A stretch of DNA of 63,634 nucleotides, the filler included, from Vannella sp. (lineage: Eukaryota), in assembly GCA_023345925.1 (NCBI GenBank). It is 5 parts of 5 records of this genome, joined end to end, with 100 filler letters (N's around TTAATTAATTAA, not from the genome) between each part and the next. Parts side by side here need not be neighbours in the genome. Positions count along the whole stretch, not along the records: positions 31,127 to 53,000 come from JAJQQN010000678.1; 4 more parts are not named here. One strand, given 5' to 3'. Each line of letters begins with the position of its first letter. Position 1 is the first letter of the stretch. The notes beneath the pieces were generated by a model. The model did not search any database, had not been told where the DNA came from, and saw only the letters and a list, made by a program, of their open reading frames with translations. Shown here in pieces: positions 1-43,064 of the stretch. The translations under genes were made by a program, and so were the position numbers.

Positions 1-441
1 GAAAATCTTTGTTCAATCACTGAATACGGCTACCCAAATAGAAATGGCCGCAACGTTATAAACATAATCCGCGCCACTCCAAGCAGCTTGTCACTCGCGA
101 GTGAGTTGGCTCGGTTCATGCAAACGAGCGAAACAAACATGTTTTATCTTATTACTGTTTATTCAGGGCTCCAGAGAGCACTCAACACCAAAGAGATGTT
201 CCCTAAATAATACAGAAACCTTTCTAAAAGGTGCTTCAAACAATTATGCGATTTGCCAGATTGCAAACTCCTTTAGGGATCCGTTTGATTGTTACCTCCA
301 TAAGATCTGAGGTAGAAAAGTCAGAGCTCTCTTCTCGGGATCAAAGAAAGGACGGTAAGATAAAGCGAGTTAGAGGGGAGAGCTTTAAAGCAGAAGTAAG
401 CGGACTTTGAGGCATTCGCCATGAGTTGAGAGTCTGAGTTC

Positions 442-2624: not shown

Positions 2625-5279
2625 TTAGTGAATGATCCCAAAGATGCCACAGCAGTGGAGTCCTTCAGAATCGAGGCCAAGCTTGAAGTTGATTCGGTCT
2701 CCCAGTTGGATTTCTGGCAAGTTGCTCGTCACTGTCAAATGGACACCAAGTAGAGAGCAACGGATCCCTTCACCAGTCCAGATACCAGTGAACGTGTAGT
2801 AATCCGACATGAGCCCGACAATGTAAGGGCGAAGAACATTGGGATGGACTTGGAACCCAGAGAATGCCAGTCCAGGGACTTGTTGGTGGGATCTTACAAA
2901 GTATTGAAGAGACTTCTTCTGGGTTCGGAAGTTGGCAGACCAAGTCAGCACTTCTCTCAGTTGCTCATGGAATTGAGACTCTCCAGGATGATTGATGCAG
3001 TCCCACACACTCATCATTACCACAGAAAGGACAAAAGATCCATTCACATCCATTCCCAGCGGGGAATCAAGAATGCCTTGGCGAGTTTGAAGCAACTTGG
3101 AAAGACATTCCCCACCAATTGGCCGAGTAGCCATTCTCTTGGAAGAAGTGCTTTGGCGGATGATGTCCAGCAGTAAGGCATTGCGCTCAGAGGCCTTCTT
3201 GGAAGCAGTGAAATTGTCGAGAGCGCATTGGAGAGGGTCGAGTCTGTTCGATGAGGACAGGACTGGCTTCCGAACGCCACTTGGTTGGATGAGTTGGAGA
3301 ATCTGACTGCGAATGTTTCGGAGTCTTTGCGAGGACTCCAACATGCGACCGCGCTCCAAAGAGCTGGAGATGAATGGGCGGGACGCAATGAAGGAGTGAC
3401 AAGCGTTGTACAACAGAGTCACTCTACGGAGCATCTCTCCCACTTGCTGTCGGATAACATCGTCACGAGGATCTTGCACCTCGCTGCAATTGAGCACATT
3501 TGCGTCCTTCCCTCCGCAGCGGCTCGCTCGGAATGTCCAAATGTACATCATCGCCATTGCCATCTGAGCAATCAATGGAACAGTCAGATTTTGCTCCTGT
3601 CTAGAAGTACAAGAGTGGAGGTAGTGCTTTCCTCTGACAAGAATCTGTTGCATTTCAGCGCTCTTATCAAAGTAGGAAATTCCTCGGCATTCTCGGACAT
3701 TCCATGTGATGTAGTTTTCTAGTCTCAACTTCTCTAGCAATCCCCGTCGCAGTTGAACCTTGTAATGGTCGTCTCTTCCAATCTCATCCAGAACAGTGGA
3801 AGCCATGTTAAGCAATCGATTAGAGGCGAGGCCGTTAGCCTGCTCCTTCACTCTAGTACTGATGATTCTCGCGCAATTGGTGCCAAAGCTGACTTGAGTT
3901 TCACTGCATTCAGAATAGACTCGAGTCAGAGACCTGAGATAGGAAACAGATCTCTCGAAGGGCAAGAAGCTCTTCACCAGAAAGCAAATTGTGATAGGCA
4001 GAGAGTTGCTGTCCTCAGCGTCTCGGATTTGAATGGGATGGGCCGCTGAGAAATAGCAGAAGGAATGCAAAAAGATCTGTCTCAGATCATCTTGGCAGAA
4101 ATCACTGTCACCAGCAATGTGAATCAGGAGTTCAATAGTGCCTTGGAGAGAAGAAAGGTCCTCTGGTGCGTCGGAGAACATTCGGCGCTGTCCTAGCAAA
4201 GCATAAGCAATGTGAGGTGCCGGAATACACACGAATTCATCGTCACTGGCTGCCAGCAGGGTGCGGAGTGGCTTGCTGAGCCCAAGCACAGAGTCACAAT
4301 CCCCCAAAATGCGGCGAACAATGGCCAAAGAGACTCGCTCATGCGGAGAGAACATGGCCACAAACAGGCAAACCTTCACCAGAGAGATTTCAGCCTCATC
4401 CAGATTATCCAGAGTTCGAGAAACGATCTGACGGCGTTCCTCCATCGCCATTTCGGTCCAAAAGTAGAGAACCAGGCCTTGACAAGTCATGTTCTCCAGA
4501 GAACAACGGAAGGGACTGATTTCCAGGCCTGACTCAATGCAGCTCTTCACAGAATGGAATTCCTGAGGCCAAAAGCCTTCTTCAAGGAGCTGGGAGTCCT
4601 CTGACAGGCAGAATTGACTTCGCTCCGACTCGGACTTGATCCTGCTCCAGCTGAGCATGGAAGTGTTTGGGTCCAAGAAGCTTCCATGAGAGACCTTGCG
4701 AGTTCCATAAGCCTGGCGGAAGTCACGAAGCTTGGACTCGCGAGTGTACTGGAATTGGCTGGTGCAAGAGGGAGATTGACGAGCTTCGCGGACGACAAGC
4801 AGGACAGATGCACTGGCACACTCTCCCCTGATGATTGAAAGCATCTGTTGAATGGCAGCAGCAGTCAAGTCCGTCTCGATGTCGAGGAAGAAGAGAGGGC
4901 GGAGCCCGTTTGCCTTCACGGGCTCAAGCAGTTGGCGGATGTGGCCTGAGTTGAAGCACTCTGGAGGGTTAACGATGGAGAACACCGTTCTGAGAGTCTT
5001 CAGAGCGAGCAAAGCAATGGTAGAGCCTCCAGAAGAGGGAGGGGCAACCAATACGGTGGTATTGCCTTCAGGGCGAGTCTGCTGCAAGGAGATAACGAGC
5101 TTGGATACCACTGCAGGGCGGAACTGGCCCGGAGGGACCTTAGGACCGGGACGAGTAGGAGACTGGTTGCTCTTAGGCTTGTTAGGAGCGACCTTGAGAC
5201 AAGAAGAAGCGGGCGAGCGGTTGACAATTGGCTTGTTCGCTGGAGCGACATGTTGAGAAGACTTTCGTGTTCTAACCAT
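2625..5279 (-). CDS. SAMD9-like protein: degenerate STAND-type P-loop NTPase, helical region, C-terminal OB-fold-like end
   Basis: ~884-aa intronless ORF. VLVAPPSSGGSTIALLALKTLR resembles the SAMD9 P-loop (PGxGGTTLAxxxLWxLR). LFFLDIE is at the Walker-B position. C-terminal DRINFKLGLDSEGLHCCGI resembles the SAMD9 end (RVSFYLGFSxxGPLAYDI). Confidence 0.55.
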   Translation of the reverse strand: MVRTRKSSQHVAPANKPIVNRSPASSCLKVAPNKPKSNQSPTRPGPKVPPGQFRPAVVSKLVISLQQTRPEGNTTVLVAPPSSGGSTIALLALKTLRTVFSIVNPPECFNSGHIRQLLEPVKANGLRPLFFLDIETDLTAAAIQQMLSIIRGECASASVLLVVREARQSPSCTSQFQYTRESKLRDFRQAYGTRKVSHGSFLDPNTSMLSWSRIKSESERSQFCLSEDSQLLEEGFWPQEFHSVKSCIESGLEISPFRCSLENMTCQGLVLYFWTEMAMEERRQIVSRTLDNLDEAEISLVKVCLFVAMFSPHERVSLAIVRRILGDCDSVLGLSKPLRTLLAASDDEFVCIPAPHIAYALLGQRRMFSDAPEDLSSLQGTIELLIHIAGDSDFCQDDLRQIFLHSFCYFSAAHPIQIRDAEDSNSLPITICFLVKSFLPFERSVSYLRSLTRVYSECSETQVSFGTNCARIISTRVKEQANGLASNRLLNMASTVLDEIGRDDHYKVQLRRGLLEKLRLENYITWNVRECRGISYFDKSAEMQQILVRGKHYLHSCTSRQEQNLTVPLIAQMAMAMMYIWTFRASRCGGKDANVLNCSEVQDPRDDVIRQQVGEMLRRVTLLYNACHSFIASRPFISSSLERGRMLESSQRLRNIRSQILQLIQPSGVRKPVLSSSNRLDPLQCALDNFTASKKASERNALLLDIIRQSTSSKRMATRPIGGECLSKLLQTRQGILDSPLGMDVNGSFVLSVVMMSVWDCINHPGESQFHEQLREVLTWSANFRTQKKSLQYFVRSHQQVPGLAFSGFQVHPNVLRPYIVGLMSDYYTFTGIWTGEGIRCSLLGVHLTVTSNLPEIQLGDRINFKLGLDSEGLHCCGIFGIIH

Positions 5280-5505
5280 TGTAACCAAGAAGATATGAGC
5301 TCCTTTCCATCGTCCTTGTCTTAAATCACCTTCTCAGTTCCCGGCAAGCAGGGAAATGACCTCGAAAGGGAACTGAGAGGGTGAAATGAAAGGTGAAATG
5401 AAAGGTGAACCTTGTTTTATTGTTTGGAGTTTCACATTGCGACTACACAAATTGTTAGGAAGGTAGAATTCATTCACGAGAGTCTAGTTTATCATTTTTT
5501 TGGGA

Positions 5506-6789
5506 ATGTCGTGTCCTTACGCACGTGACGTTGAAAGAGGCCAATCGGAAGAAGCGGACGAGAAGTAGGTGGCTCCCTCTGGATGAGGGAATCAGGAGGA
5601 TTGAATCTGTTGGGTTAGGAGGGAGGCCGAGGAACTGGCTGCGGAGTTTCGCGCTGTGAAAGCACGAGGACCCCGAGAGGATGTGGATTACTCAACCTAC
5701 CTTCAGCTAGACAAGATACTCAACGCTCAAGACTTGGCAAGTGAGGCGGACGAGAGCACGCCCACAGCCCATACGGAGATGCTCTTCATCATCACTCACC
5801 AAACCTACGAGCTCTGGTTCAAGCAGATCCTACACGAGTTGGACTCTGTCATTCGCATCTTCACACAGGACTTTGTGAACGGCAACCAGCTGCTCCTCGC
5901 AGCCTCGCGCCTGGAACGAGTAACAGAGATCCAAAGAATCCTCATCGATCAGATCCGTGTGCTGGAGACGATGACTCCCATGGAGTTCTTAGACTTTAGG
6001 CACCTCCTCACACCTGCCTCTGGCTTCCAAAGCCTTCAATTCCGTCTGATTGAGAACAAGCTCGGTCTAGCATACCGTGTGAAGTACCAGAACAAGGACA
6101 TTGCAGAGAGCTTCACTCAGAAGGATGAGAAAGAGCTTACAGAGTCCATGCGGGAGACCCTCTTCGCCTCTATTGAGAAGTGGCTGGCTCGCATGCCGTT
6201 CGTGGAGGAAGAGAACTTCACCTTCTGGAGCGAGTACCGATCTGCTGTTGATCGCATGCTCGGTGCTGAGCTTGAGGCGATCAAGATGCACTCATCCGAG
6301 ACAGTGGAAGACGAGGAGACGGGCGAGGTCAAGCGAAACCCGATCTTCGTCCGGCATGAGAAGACAGAGCAGTTCTTCCATGACATGTTCGACGAGAAGA
6401 AGTACAACGAACTGGTAGAGCGAGGAGATCGTCGACTATCCTACCGAGCCTGCCAGTCTGCCCTCTTCATCTACGCCTATCGTGAGCAGCCCGCTTTGCA
6501 GCTTCCCTACCGCATTCTCAACACTCTCACGGAGATCGATGAAAGCCTGATCACATGGCGCTTCCGCCACGTCATGATGGTGCAGCGTATGATCGGAATG
6601 AAGACCGGAACGGGAGGATCCAGCGGATACTATTACCTCCGCAGCACCGTCTCCGATCGGTACAAGATCTTCCTGGACTTTATGACGCTTTCCACGTACA
6701 TCATCCCGCAAACGGCTCTTCCCAAATTACCAGAGGCCATGGAGAGGCGACTGGGATTTGCCTACATGAATTATCCTCTTTCTGTTTAA
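5506..6789 (+). CDS. TDO2: Tryptophan 2,3-dioxygenase
   Basis: Exon 1 MSCPY... at 5506-5564; intron 5565-5618 (gtaggt..ttag) restores frame. Motifs YLQLDKILNAQ, HTEMLFIITHQTYELWFKQI, PASGFQSLQFRLIENKLG, GTGGSSGYYYL. Confidence 0.97.
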
Positions 6790-31385: not shown

Positions 31386-31864
31386 TATGCAAAGGAAGCG
31401 GTGAGGGCGTTGCCCCCACCTGCCACTCGGAGACCGATTTTCCACAAAAAAAAATCTCTGTCCCTCCTTCCTTTGGATTTGGAAGAATCAGATGAAGGCA
31501 CCATTGCCTGCCAAAGAGCAACATTCAATAGTTGTTACCCTGATTTCATCAGCACACTAAAAGGAGGGAACAGGGGAATAAATCAGTCACTCACCTTTGA
31601 GGAGCATCCCCATTGCGAGAAGAAGTTCTTCTCCTCTCTTGTTCCTCTTCCCATTCCCGAAAGACACATCCAAGGGAAGTGTTGATGCTCGGCCACTTAC
31701 CCACTAAAAGCAACTAAGATATCAAAGGTGAAGAACTGAAGGTCCCACCGCAGAGCAGTGCGGCCCAAAGCAATTGGATCTCCCGCAAAGAAAGGTCCAA
31801 TACGACTAATAGCGCAGCGCATTGCTGCTCTGTTTGAGTTTTGTTGTTGAGAACAATCTGATTC

Positions 31865-34843
31865 TTATTCACCATGGATTTTTGATGCCGCTGTTCCAAT
31901 GGGATCATTGGGTAGAGCCGCTTCAGTTGGTCCGCACTCGGATGCGCAATCTGATGAGGATGAGGCACATTTTGATGGCGGGAACTTGGGGGCAACACAG
32001 CTCTTTTGGTGAATGCCTCGCACTTTCAGAAGAGCCTTCAAGTCAGCATTGCCCAATTGAAGGTCCTGAGCAGAGAGGAACAGCAACGCCCCTCGCCCTG
32101 AAGCTCCCGTCCCCCGAATGATATCGGCAGTTACCTTTGAGAGCTCGTTCTCACTCAACAAGTTGGCCATTTCCTCTGCTGTTTCGCACTTGCAAACACT
32201 GCACTCTTGGTCGGAGTAAGGAAGCGCTCCCTTTTCAAGGCGCTCCCGAGTGTAAAGCACAACGATTTGCTGGTCCTTTGGCAGTGCAGAGACCATCGAT
32301 TTCACATCTCTCTCTCTTCGCAAGATCAAGTCTTTGGCGGCGATGTTTTGAAGCACTTTGATAGTTCTCGCATCAGCACCGAAGCAGTTGAGCAACAAAC
32401 CGAGCTTCGGACTGCCTTCCTCATTGAGATCGAAAAGGCCTTCTGGGTCTTTTCTAAGCTGGTCCTCGAGAGCAAGGATCAGGCGTCTCTCCACCTCCGC
32501 GGCCGATTGGACAAAGCGTTTCAAGGCTTCAATATCAAGCTGTTGAAGCTCCTCCATGCGGCTTTCAGCGCTGTTGATCAGGCTTAGACGATCAAATTGA
32601 GCCAGGACTGGCTCCAGGCTGAGACGATCCAATTGAGTCAGGACTGGCTCCCAAAGGAGCTTGGTTGAGAAAGAGCACGGCAATCGCCCATCCTCGAACC
32701 ACTGCTGCATATCCTCTTTGTCCGGTTGGGTCGCTGAAGACATGATAGCTGCCATGCGGGAAGATACACCCAACTCCTTCTGCAGGATGACCTGCAGGCC
32801 CAGCGCTAGTGGGTTGTTCGCTTTGAAAAGCGCCAATTTAGCTTGTTGCTACCCCTTAGTGAGTCCCACGGTTCATCTCGTTTCCAACTCACCTTAAGGC
32901 ACTCGCCTCCCTTCTGAACAAGCAATTTGGTGATTTCGTCGTGTCCTTGGTGGAGAGCTAAGTCCAAAGCCGTCTTCCCAAAAGGTGAGTTCTCAAATTT
33001 TCTTGTTTCTCATCAAAGAAAGAGTAATGACAAGAAAGGGGATGGGGTCATTCACTCACAAACTAAAAAACAATCCCAGAAAGATGAGCGGAGTGCTTGA
33101 TCACAAGGTAGGTCCCATGTCACTCACTTGCTAAGAGCGGAAGGTGAGTTCTTGCCCTGTTTCTTTCTTCTTTGAAATTCTTTGTCCGTTAAGGGATCAG
33201 TCACTTACTCTCTAATCCCAAAAGGTGAGCGTTTGGAACCTCCCCCACTTCAGAGTAATCTAGCCCAAGAGGCTTGATTTGGAATGATACAGATCAGTCA
33301 CTCACATCCTAAATGCACCCTCAAGGTGAGCTTTTCTGCTCTTGAGCCCTCTTTCCTTCCCATAAAGGAAAGAGGCGTAAACAGGGGTGAAGGGGGCCTA
33401 TCTCTTACTTCCTAAAGCAATCCCAAATGTCAGGTCATCTATAAATGCGTATCTATCTTCCATATGGCATATTATGAGGAGGTGAGGATCAGTTACTTAC
33501 TGCCTAAAAGCAATCCCAAAAGGTGAATATTTTCATCTTCTCCTCTTCTTCAAAGAAAGAGAGATCATTGGGTGATAAGAAATCAGCTACTTACTCTCTA
33601 AAAGCAACCCCAAAAGGTTAGTTAACTATTACTCCCCTTCCTCTCTCTATCATTGATAAAGGACCAATCGATAGAAGCTAAAGAGGAAGGAAGAGAGAGA
33701 GGGGAAACTAGTGCCTTACAGCCTGGAGATGAGAGCCTAGGTGAGAATGAGGATCGCTTTAAGAGAGGAACCCACCTTGTTGAGCTCGATTCCGTCCAGA
33801 GAAAGCAAGTATTCGACGATGTCAAGTTGCCCTTTGTCGGAAGCAAAAGTCAGGAAGGTCTGTGGTGAGTTAGATTTTTGTCACAAGCCTCTCCCATTAG
33901 AACGGGTAGCGAGAAAGGGGGCCCCTATTCTAGGGTGATGCGGCCAAACCACTCCAAAACAAAGGCTTTCACTGAACCGAGCACGTGACCGCATCCTGAC
34001 ACCCCACTCCTTTCTGCCACACTTGAGACTTACCCACTAAAGGAAATCGCAAAAGGTGAGTTTCGTTCTCCTATCTTTCATAAAGAGAGGGAGGGGCTGA
34101 TGGATCAGTCACTCACATACTAAAAGCACCCCCATTGCGGTGAGTTCTTCTCCTTCTGCTTCTCCTCTTCTTCATCATCATCAAGAAGTATCAACGAGAG
34201 GAGATCTCCAAGACACTTACTCCCTAAAGCATCCCCAAAAGGTTAGTTCTCCTTTCCTCCTCTCCTCCTCTTCTCCCTTGTTCCCCCTTCCCCGTCCCTG
34301 GAGAAAGAGAATCAAAGGGAGAGAGGGAGAGTTTGATGGATAAGGAAGTCACTTACTCCCTAAAGCATCCCCATAGCGGTGAGTTCTTCTCCTTCTCCTC
34401 TTCCTTCTCTCATCCCCAGAGAAAGAGACACCAAAGAGAGGGAGTGGCAGATGGATCATTCTCTTACTTTCTAAAAGCATCCCCATTATGGTGAGTTCTT
34501 CTCCTTCTCCTCTTTCTCCTCCTTCTTCTCTTCTTTCCTCCTTCTCTTCATCTCTTTACCATCCCCAAGAGATATAACAGAGGAGAGGCGGACGCTCGTT
34601 CACTTACCCACTAAAGGTATCCAAGATGGTGAGACCCACGCCCAAAGGGAGGGAAGGCATGGACCAGTCACTTACCCACTAAAAGCAGCCCAAAGGTGAG
34701 TCCTCCTGCTCCTTCTCCTCTTCCGAGAGTTGCTTGACAGTTCTCACCATGTTCAGCCTCTCTGGGTGATCCTCTAGAAAGGCTTGAACCCTGCTCAAAC
34801 TCCCAGACTTCATGGCGGCCAGGTGCTCTTCGTTCACTCCCAT
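31865..34843 (-). CDS. Ankyrin-repeat protein with 15 single-codon micro-exons and a C-terminal helical/SAM-like region
   Basis: Exon 34843-34748 MGVNEEHLAAMKSGSLSRVQAFLEDHPERLNM; seven 3-nt exons (W,W,K,G,G,Y,W); exon 33859-33776 TFLTFASDKGQLDIVEYLLSLDGIELNK; eight 3-nt exons (A,R,A,E,D,R,Q,F); exon 32973-32893 TALDLALHQGHDEITKLLVQKGGECLK; final exon 32848-31865 in frame with the 323-aa ORF. All 18 introns are GT..AG and phase 0. Confidence 0.82.
32580..32651 (-). repeat. 36-nt in-frame tandem duplication (EPVLTQLDRLSL / EPVLAQFDRLSL)
   Basis: Two near-identical adjacent copies in the last exon. Confidence 0.85.
32974..33775 (-). repeat. Micro-exon array B: eight intron/3-nt-exon units
   Basis: AG|NNN|GT units in transcript order: GCT 33722-33720, AGA 33597-33595, GCA 33503-33501, GAA 33411-33409, GAT 33308-33306, AGA 33211-33209, CAA 33130-33128, TTT 33062-33060. 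Confidence 0.88.
33860..34747 (-). repeat. Micro-exon array A: seven intron/3-nt-exon units
   Basis: TTTAG|NNN|GTRAG units in transcript order: TGG 34678-34676, TGG 34610-34608, AAA 34470-34468, GGA 34359-34357, GGA 34223-34221, TAT 34119-34117, TGG 34036-34034. Each is preceded by a CTCAC/CTAAC branch-like motif ~20 nt upstream. Confidence 0.9.
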
Positions 34844-42139: not shown

Positions 42140-43064
42140 ATGTCGGAAGAGGACGTTCTTTATGGTCTGCGAAACAGCTTCTACACTGGGAACTATCAAG
42201 CAGCTATTACTGAGGCGGATAGCACACCTGATTCTGAAGCAAAGTCGGTGTTTGTGTACCGGAGCTACATCGGATTGGGGAACTTTGACCTCGTTCTGGA
42301 CGAGATCAAGGAGGAGGATGACGTTGCGCCTGCTTTATTGGCAACTCGTTACCTTGCAGAGTATTTGCAGGACCGTGGCTCTTTGAGTGAGGTGCAGCAG
42401 AAGCTCGCAGGCCTTTCTGGATCTGAGATGTCTGCAGTTGTGTCTGCCCTCATCTTCTTCCATGAGAACCGCGTTGATGATGGCCTCCGTGCCATTGCAT
42501 CCGTTGGTACCATGGAATCGCGTGCGTTGATGGTTCATGGCTTGCTGATGCTCAACCGCCTGGACAAGGCAGAGGAGATTTACAAACAAATGCAGGTTGC
42601 TGATGAAGACCACACTCTAACTGCTCTGGCTACAACCTGGTTGACAATCGCCAAGGGGGATGCTAGCATGAAGGACGCTTTCTATCAGTTCCAGGAGCTG
42701 ATGGACAAGTTTTCGCCTTCTCCCCTGCTCCTCAATGGCCTTGCAGTGTACAACTTGAAGACTGATAAGCTTGAAGAAGCCACTTCTGCCCTACAAGAGT
42801 CCTTAGAGAAGAACCCCACGCATCCTGAAACGATTGCCAACCTCCTCGCATGCTCCGCCTTCGCCACTGACAAGACTCCCAAGCAAATCAGCCAAGCCTC
42901 AGCCCGCCAAGTGAGGTAAGAACACCCCTCCCTCCTCCATCCCTTCTGACCACAAAGAAAGGCAACTCAAAGCGAACGATCCCTCTCATATTTGGCTCCG
43001 CAAACTCGAGTCCTTCGACCAACTCTTCGACACCCAAGCAGCTCGTTTCCAAGCCGCTAAATAA
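42140..43064 (+). CDS. COPE: Coatomer subunit epsilon
   Basis: LYGLRNSFYTGNYQAAI, VYRSYIGLG, EDHTLTALATTW, DAFYQFQEL, LLLNGLAV; final exon QLKANDPSHIWL. Confidence 0.95.

Follow-up and report, generated by a model that had tools for sequence, protein, structure and literature searches.

Arrays of candidate one-codon exons in the ankyrin loops of a predicted Vannella gene family

The micro-exon genes (MEGs) of Schistosoma encode secreted proteins and are made up mostly of micro-exons, small frame-preserving exons whose skipping gives rise to variation. In Dscam, one of many large mutually exclusive exons is chosen, and competing RNA pairings steer the choice. Closest to the locus described here are the nank genes of the truffle Tuber, for which the primary paper is reportedly that of Iotti and co-workers (Iotti et al. 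2012). Passages in two later papers state that the expanded nank (NACHT-ANK) family of Tuber melanosporum is diversified through codon-sized microexons, multiple or in the tens, that are alternatively spliced (PMC4986451, PMC3689799), and similar passages elsewhere place these 3-bp microexons in the ANK or C-terminal sensor domain (PMC13449251, PMC10197012, PMC9815663). An earlier note on the present DNA had known of no described system like the one it proposed, a claim that has to be withdrawn, as these passages cite the Tuber nank genes for the mechanism in ankyrin sensor domains. Published codon-exon arrays from protists or amoebae were not found in a literature search that covered few subscription papers.

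The Vannella gene resembles the nank genes, as far as the cited passages describe them, in having many candidate 3-bp exons in the ankyrin recognition domain of a gene family, expanded in the fungus and possibly so in Vannella, for which sensor diversification has been proposed, and the multiple 3-bp exons are found here at the DNA level as 15 units with full splice signals. The differences are equally plain. The fungal proteins have a NACHT domain, whereas the Vannella gene would encode N-terminal ankyrin repeats, a coiled coil and a SAM-like domain, with no NACHT domain in exon 4 (Pfam, E<=1) or among the best five families listed for each of 50 relatives. The same passages speak of "tens" or "dozens" of units in the fungus, compared with 7-8 per loop in Vannella, and report alternative splicing there, while in Vannella the splicing of the units is predicted from DNA. 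Since the NACHT domain is absent, the predicted gene is nank-like in layout and not a member of that family; new are the arrays in both loops of a protist family outside the NLRs, and the support that relatives give at the protein level. The Schistosoma MEGs likewise have runs of small exons that preserve the frame, but are coded mostly by micro-exons; in the predicted Vannella gene these contribute only 45 of 1,290 coding nt, and every one is 3 nt. Duplicated cassettes varying a binding surface recall Dscam, but the cassettes here are single codons of which several must be included together; a one-of-many choice among 3-nt exons cannot build loops of 5-12 aa such as the relatives have.

The window, by which is meant the whole stretch of DNA analysed (63,634 nt), is made up of eukaryotic contigs linked by N's and carries this gene, within the piece at 31127-53000, on its minus strand, with 19 predicted exons, all in phase 0, and a product of about 429 aa. 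The exons follow in the order exon 1 (96 nt), seven units, exon 2, eight units, exon 3 and exon 4 (984 nt), and their positions are collected in Table 1 along with the corresponding loops of relatives. The codons of the first array read W,W,K,G,G,Y,W, with introns of 65-137 nt between units, and those of the second A,R,A,E,D,R,Q,F, with introns of 65-122 nt. The bounds previously given for the first three large exons, and the phase 0 of the junctions, were borne out. Exon 1 has no Pfam match, and it was aligned with the N-termini of P0172 (56%) and of the Vannella protein P0262 (45%, residues 1-31 to 1-31). The Ank_2 alignment of exon 2 begins at the T of a TPL-type motif, and exon 3 is 67% identical to the paralog P0002. 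The flanking exons match Ank profiles weakly, and the ankyrin assignment draws in addition on relatives that match Ank_2, Ank and ankyrin structures. An ordinary ankyrin gene without micro-exon units lies on the same contig (window 44493-45035).

Table 1. Positions of the predicted exons, unit arrays and orphan units in the window, and of the corresponding loops in related proteins.
Feature	Position	Strand	Remarks
Exon 1	34748..34843	(-)	32 aa, ankyrin N-cap-like, begins with ATG
Array 1	34034..34678	(-)	seven 3-nt units; first bases 34678, 34610, 34470, 34359, 34223, 34119, 34036
Exon 2	33776..33859	(-)	84 nt; encodes an ankyrin helix-turn-helix of 28 aa; Pfam Ank_2 below cut-off (E 0.0078)
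Array 2	33060..33722	(-)	eight 3-nt units; first bases 33722, 33597, 33503, 33411, 33308, 33211, 33130, 33062
Exon 3	32893..32973	(-)	81 nt, last ankyrin repeat, AAG acceptor; Pfam Ank E 0.00066
Exon 4	31865..32848	(-)	327 aa: coiled coil, helical linker with conserved Cys/His, SAM-like domain
Orphan unit, intact	31701..31703 (first base 31703)	(-)	TGG, behind stop codon; resembles array introns
Orphan unit, decayed	31578..31643 (unit near 31595)	(-)	behind stop codon; acceptor AG lost, donor kept; repeat family D1 member
P0172 loops	residues 44-51, 80-91		8 aa, 12 aa
P0262 loops	residues 33-43, 72-81		11 aa, 10 aa
P0237 loop			9 aa; middle repeat absent altogether
P0268 loop			5 aa
P0205 loop			about 9 aa

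Between positions 32893 and 34843, all 15 of the minus-strand YAG-NNN-GTRAG units that the earlier note had reported are present, each with a spacer of exactly 3 nt, compared with a mean of 0.13 and a maximum of 3 AG-NNN-GTRAG units in 5,000 first-order Markov resamples of the same segment. An AG stands exactly 3 nt upstream at 15 of the 16 GTRAG sites in the segment, the sixteenth being the donor of exon 1, and a pattern scan within the array found no spacers of 1, 2, 4, 5, 6 or 9 nt. The companion statement that the spacer is never a stop codon holds for all 15 units but is weak evidence when taken alone, as 15 random codons would lack a stop with P = 0.49. Tandem Repeats Finder did not call the array as a satellite. 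A "stop" unit suggested by a relaxed donor pattern overlaps a donor and was rejected as spurious. Mis-assembly of the array region is unlikely, because in three DNA runs there are Logan contigs that agree with long parts of the stretch at 99-100%, although no contig covers it entirely.

The splice signals of the units were compared with those of seven ordinary introns of 42-58 nt, located by eye in neighbouring genes, the first three of which, in Mot1, join exons without stops over 301 codons. A protein search with Mot1 was uninformative on taxonomy, its named matches being from fungi and animals at 65% or less. The distance from the nearest branch-like A to the intron end is 14-22 nt before 14 of the 15 units (the fifteenth has candidates at 7, 19 and 25), as against 8-14 nt in the seven ordinary introns and 6-12 nt before three large exons, a significantly longer spacer at the units (P = 3e-4). 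Every unit has a GTRAG donor, which is found in only three of the seven ordinary introns. An AAG acceptor like that of exon 3 also closes one of the ordinary introns (42916-42957). Beyond the splice signals, the units share a core (repeat families D1-D4) while the intron middles have diverged, a combination that fits old tandem duplication as their probable origin. The codons themselves are less alike than their surroundings, with a pairwise identity of 0.31 versus 0.49 in the non-splice flank at donor +7..+14.

The ankyrin region is unbroken, in part or whole, in five relatives known as protein sequences (P0172, P0262, P0237, P0268 and P0205). Of these, P0262 is a Vannella robusta transcript, and P0172 and P0237 carry the source label "merc", which we take to be a metatranscriptome catalogue. 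Exons 1-3 have counterparts in P0172 and P0262, namely the N-cap, a middle repeat of 28 aa and the last repeat, respectively. A textbook ankyrin repeat has 5-6 loop residues, and it had been argued that only about five are needed here while 7-8 are on offer; the relatives do not bear this out, with loops that span 5-12 aa and measure 8-12 aa in six of seven cases. Starting with the last repeat, P0172 is 87% identical to P0237, yet the two have dissimilar loops, and among the relatives generally the loops diverge much faster than the scaffold. Loops at the array positions therefore appear to be hypervariable. The reading in the earlier note is upheld in that the units look like real one-codon exons and fall in the loops that join ankyrin repeats. 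Relatives carry variable loops at precisely these positions. The predicted gene model, with unit codons between ankyrin exons, is well supported, because the ankyrin-unbroken relatives have unalike loops of 5-12 residues at the positions of the arrays.

A structure model of P0172 (pLDDT 89) has its best matches among ankyrin and DARPin structures; its loop 2 is irregular and of lower confidence, and loop 1 is partly helical and not a clear hairpin. DARPins and LoopDARPins share with the predicted protein an ankyrin scaffold and a variable or extended inter-repeat loop, but they are made in vitro; the Vannella gene would be a natural analogue only, with putative binding loops. Named members of the gene family number two, both of them Vannella robusta proteins (Amoebozoa); over exon 4, one shows 29% identity. 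A further protein search for relatives returned just two proteins, both already known. Most close homologs found begin only at or beyond the last ankyrin exon.

Exon 4 has 36 homologs at 38-99% identity and 114 profile matches, and belongs to no Pfam family (nothing at E<=1). Its structure model (pLDDT 81) comprises a coiled coil and a C-terminal domain, the latter SAM-like at about residues 214-285. SAM domains head the fold list, at middling Z scores of 5.0-6.4 (rmsd 2.4-3.1, 59-74 aligned), the best chain reaching a likewise middling Z of 6.4 (rmsd 2.5, 64 aligned); a Pfam SAM match is absent, and SAM_KIDINS220 matches weakly in one relative (E 0.007). Foldseek gave no match at E<=0.001 for the model of exon 4 or of P0172, and the ESM Atlas no usable match. 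The same module occurs in other architectures (P0223, P0228, P0232, P0253), with longer ordinary ankyrin arrays or an unannotated N-terminal region as partners, and with an NBR1-type Ig domain after the module, and the coiled-coil/SAM-like part is thereby suggested to be a modular signalling unit outside the Pfam families. At window 32579-32651 a 36-nt tandem duplication stands where about 40 coiled-coil residues of the paralogs are missing, and at window 31865-31990 the C-terminus extends about 40 aa beyond the paralogs' stop, a tail shared by the 99% identical P0001. Because exon 4 has lost those residues and overruns that stop, this copy of the gene may be drifting.

Sequencing depth bears on the size of the family. 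Runs X1-X3, which are DNA from biofilm metagenomes, covered the stretch best (shares of 0.69, 0.40 and 0.31). Summed contig depth, which is not copy number and may include related organisms, was 5,808, 5,050 and 3,139 for the core of unit 6 in these runs (4,600-6,700 with a narrower mapping), 255, 135 and 148 for a conserved segment of exon 4, and about 4-5 for single-copy pieces, which places the unit core about 800-1,300 times deeper than the last. By depth ratio, each family-gene equivalent has about 21-37 unit cores, which is what one would expect were arrays present in most copies. In run X4 the depths were only about 26 (unit core) and 5 (exon-4 segment). The depths suggest a large array-bearing gene family, and multi-copy depth and the 36 homologs together hint at its expansion, although they may mix paralogs with copies from other species. 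One paralogous unit, with a Pro codon, was seen among the contigs.

It seems on balance somewhat probable that the 15 spacers are one-codon exons, that they are mostly included, and that variety lies chiefly between gene copies. Most or all of the units would be spliced in, so that loops of seven and eight residues separate the ankyrin repeats in what is likely a sensor protein composed of ankyrin, coiled-coil and SAM-like domains. The long spacer and strong donor probably allow the spliceosome to hold the branch point and the next donor together across 3 nt. A cassette of "intron plus one codon" would have multiplied by tandem duplication, and because the cassettes are phase 0, the gain or loss of one, or a change in its codon, would alter a single loop residue and keep the frame. 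Loop variety would then lie mainly in differences among the many copies of the gene, to which skipping would add further in-frame variants. Against this reading, the cited Tuber precedent involves alternative and not constitutive splicing. Judging from the type of domains, the loops may bind ligands and signalling may proceed via coiled-coil/SAM oligomers.

Combinatorial skipping could instead be the main source of variety, with each gene making hundreds to thousands of loop isoforms, a reading that we regard as doubtful though a real possibility. The phase 0 of all junctions would allow it, the relatives tolerate the whole span of loop lengths and P0237 even does without the middle repeat, and there is the cited precedent, as far as those passages go, in the ankyrin sensor domains of the Tuber nank genes. 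The numbers on offer are smaller than the 32,768 isoforms (all subsets) and 1,176 (exactly five units per loop) first calculated; because residues repeat among the unit codons, the distinct loop pairs come to 15,120 (70 x 216) and 612 (12 x 51), respectively. Nor is skipping required by loop length, since including all 7 + 8 codons already gives natural loop sizes. In addition, one identical loop 2 occurs in the three records of the Vannella-like P0262 cluster that span it wholly, which speaks against extensive skipping, although these may be one data set and assemblies keep the major form only. Many introns in 33131-34607 are rich in pyrimidines in their 5' half and in purines in their 3' half, and these halves can pair with each other in the same intron or in different ones. 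Pairings between different introns equal in strength those in the same intron, the cognate pair being best in only 2 of 17, and such interchangeable pairings could loop units out. Yet intron folding is not above that of shuffles (mean z -0.3), and the pairings, also as a parallel to Dscam, are to be taken as a lead only.

A bolder, and in our estimation unlikely, extension is that free-living amoebae have, independently of truffles, an anticipatory receptor repertoire, in which dozens of ankyrin/coiled-coil/SAM genes with on the order of a thousand one-codon cassettes, spliced combinatorially per cell and possibly steered by the pyrimidine-purine pairings, would randomise loops residue by residue against prey, symbionts or giant viruses.

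Quite improbable is the proposal that the units are absent from the mRNA, whether as recursive-like stepping-stone sites, as repeat remnants in two long introns or as parts of a dying pseudogene. The orphan units behind the stop codon and the alterations of exon 4 relative to its paralogs would suit it, but skipping every unit would leave loops of 0 residues where all seven loops of the relatives have at least five, the spacer is exactly one codon in 15 of 15 units that differ from each other, and none of the splice signals or of the four large exons is disrupted. The orphan units could derive from a paralog since lost, or have arisen as ectopic copies. A more diverged version of their site (31578-31720) is present in X1-X3 contigs. 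That a self-spreading intron-like element, or neutral tandem duplication of introns in a tolerant loop, produced included codons and a variable surface that is unselected is highly improbable, for although the unit core is shared beyond the splice signals, reaches very high depth and also occurs outside the reading frame, units in the window are confined to the two ankyrin loops and the orphan pair while other genes have plain 42-58-nt introns, the relatives' loops diverge much faster than the scaffold, the array has no Rfam match, and no terminal inverted repeats at intron ends were found among the 21 pairs listed.

Similar layouts were sought in other DNA. A generic three-unit pattern was found at no fewer than 210 loci (1 viral, at least 111 metagenome, from 11 of 64 parts scanned, and 98 genome loci), most of which are microsatellites or coding repeats, and none was identifiable as the present family. 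Twenty-seven chains passed a fixed rule, with 8 stops among 204 units versus 16 expected, and the eight intron-like arrays picked by eye from these 27 (L030, L083, L091, L092, L157, L168, L205 and L210) hold 111 units with a single stop versus 9.7 expected (P = 6.5e-4). The one-codon layout thus appears to recur, with spacers that avoid stops, in other organisms and other genes, a recurrence that says nothing on splicing in the Vannella gene. The Vannella unit-core pattern was found in none of the genome or viral contigs searched, and loci encoding the C-terminal family in none of the metagenome, genome or viral contigs searched.

The eight arrays are of several kinds. L157, L168 and L205 (contigs C171, C114 and C69 of G001), with 27, 31 and 17 strict units, respectively, have introns of about 30 nt and one codon each and belong to a GTDB genome titled "Mycoplasma sp.", whose very AT-rich, eukaryote-like contigs are likely contamination; a RING-finger-like stretch lies downstream of the array in L157. 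L030 (92-1262), L091 and L092 are GC-rich, with intron-like units of about 89-95 nt and variable codons, and in L030 and L091 the array is followed by an exon that is rich in proline and glycine and has a PP..GW motif. L083 and L210 are very AT-rich, with 80-90-nt introns and single codons, and L210, in a record titled Candidatus Glomeribacter gigasporarum, may be fungal-host DNA.

Splice-site recognition is pushed to its limits by 3-nt exons in direct succession, and since aligners and gene finders miss exons of this size, whole families are mis-annotated. Vannella robusta is a named organism that shares the architecture and has a publicly available transcriptome. Should the arrays work as proposed, with one-codon exons mostly included, a mechanism cited from a single truffle paper would recur in a distant lineage and in an unrelated architecture, and codon-by-codon diversification of loops, if true, would be a convergent strategy of recognition in microbial eukaryotes.
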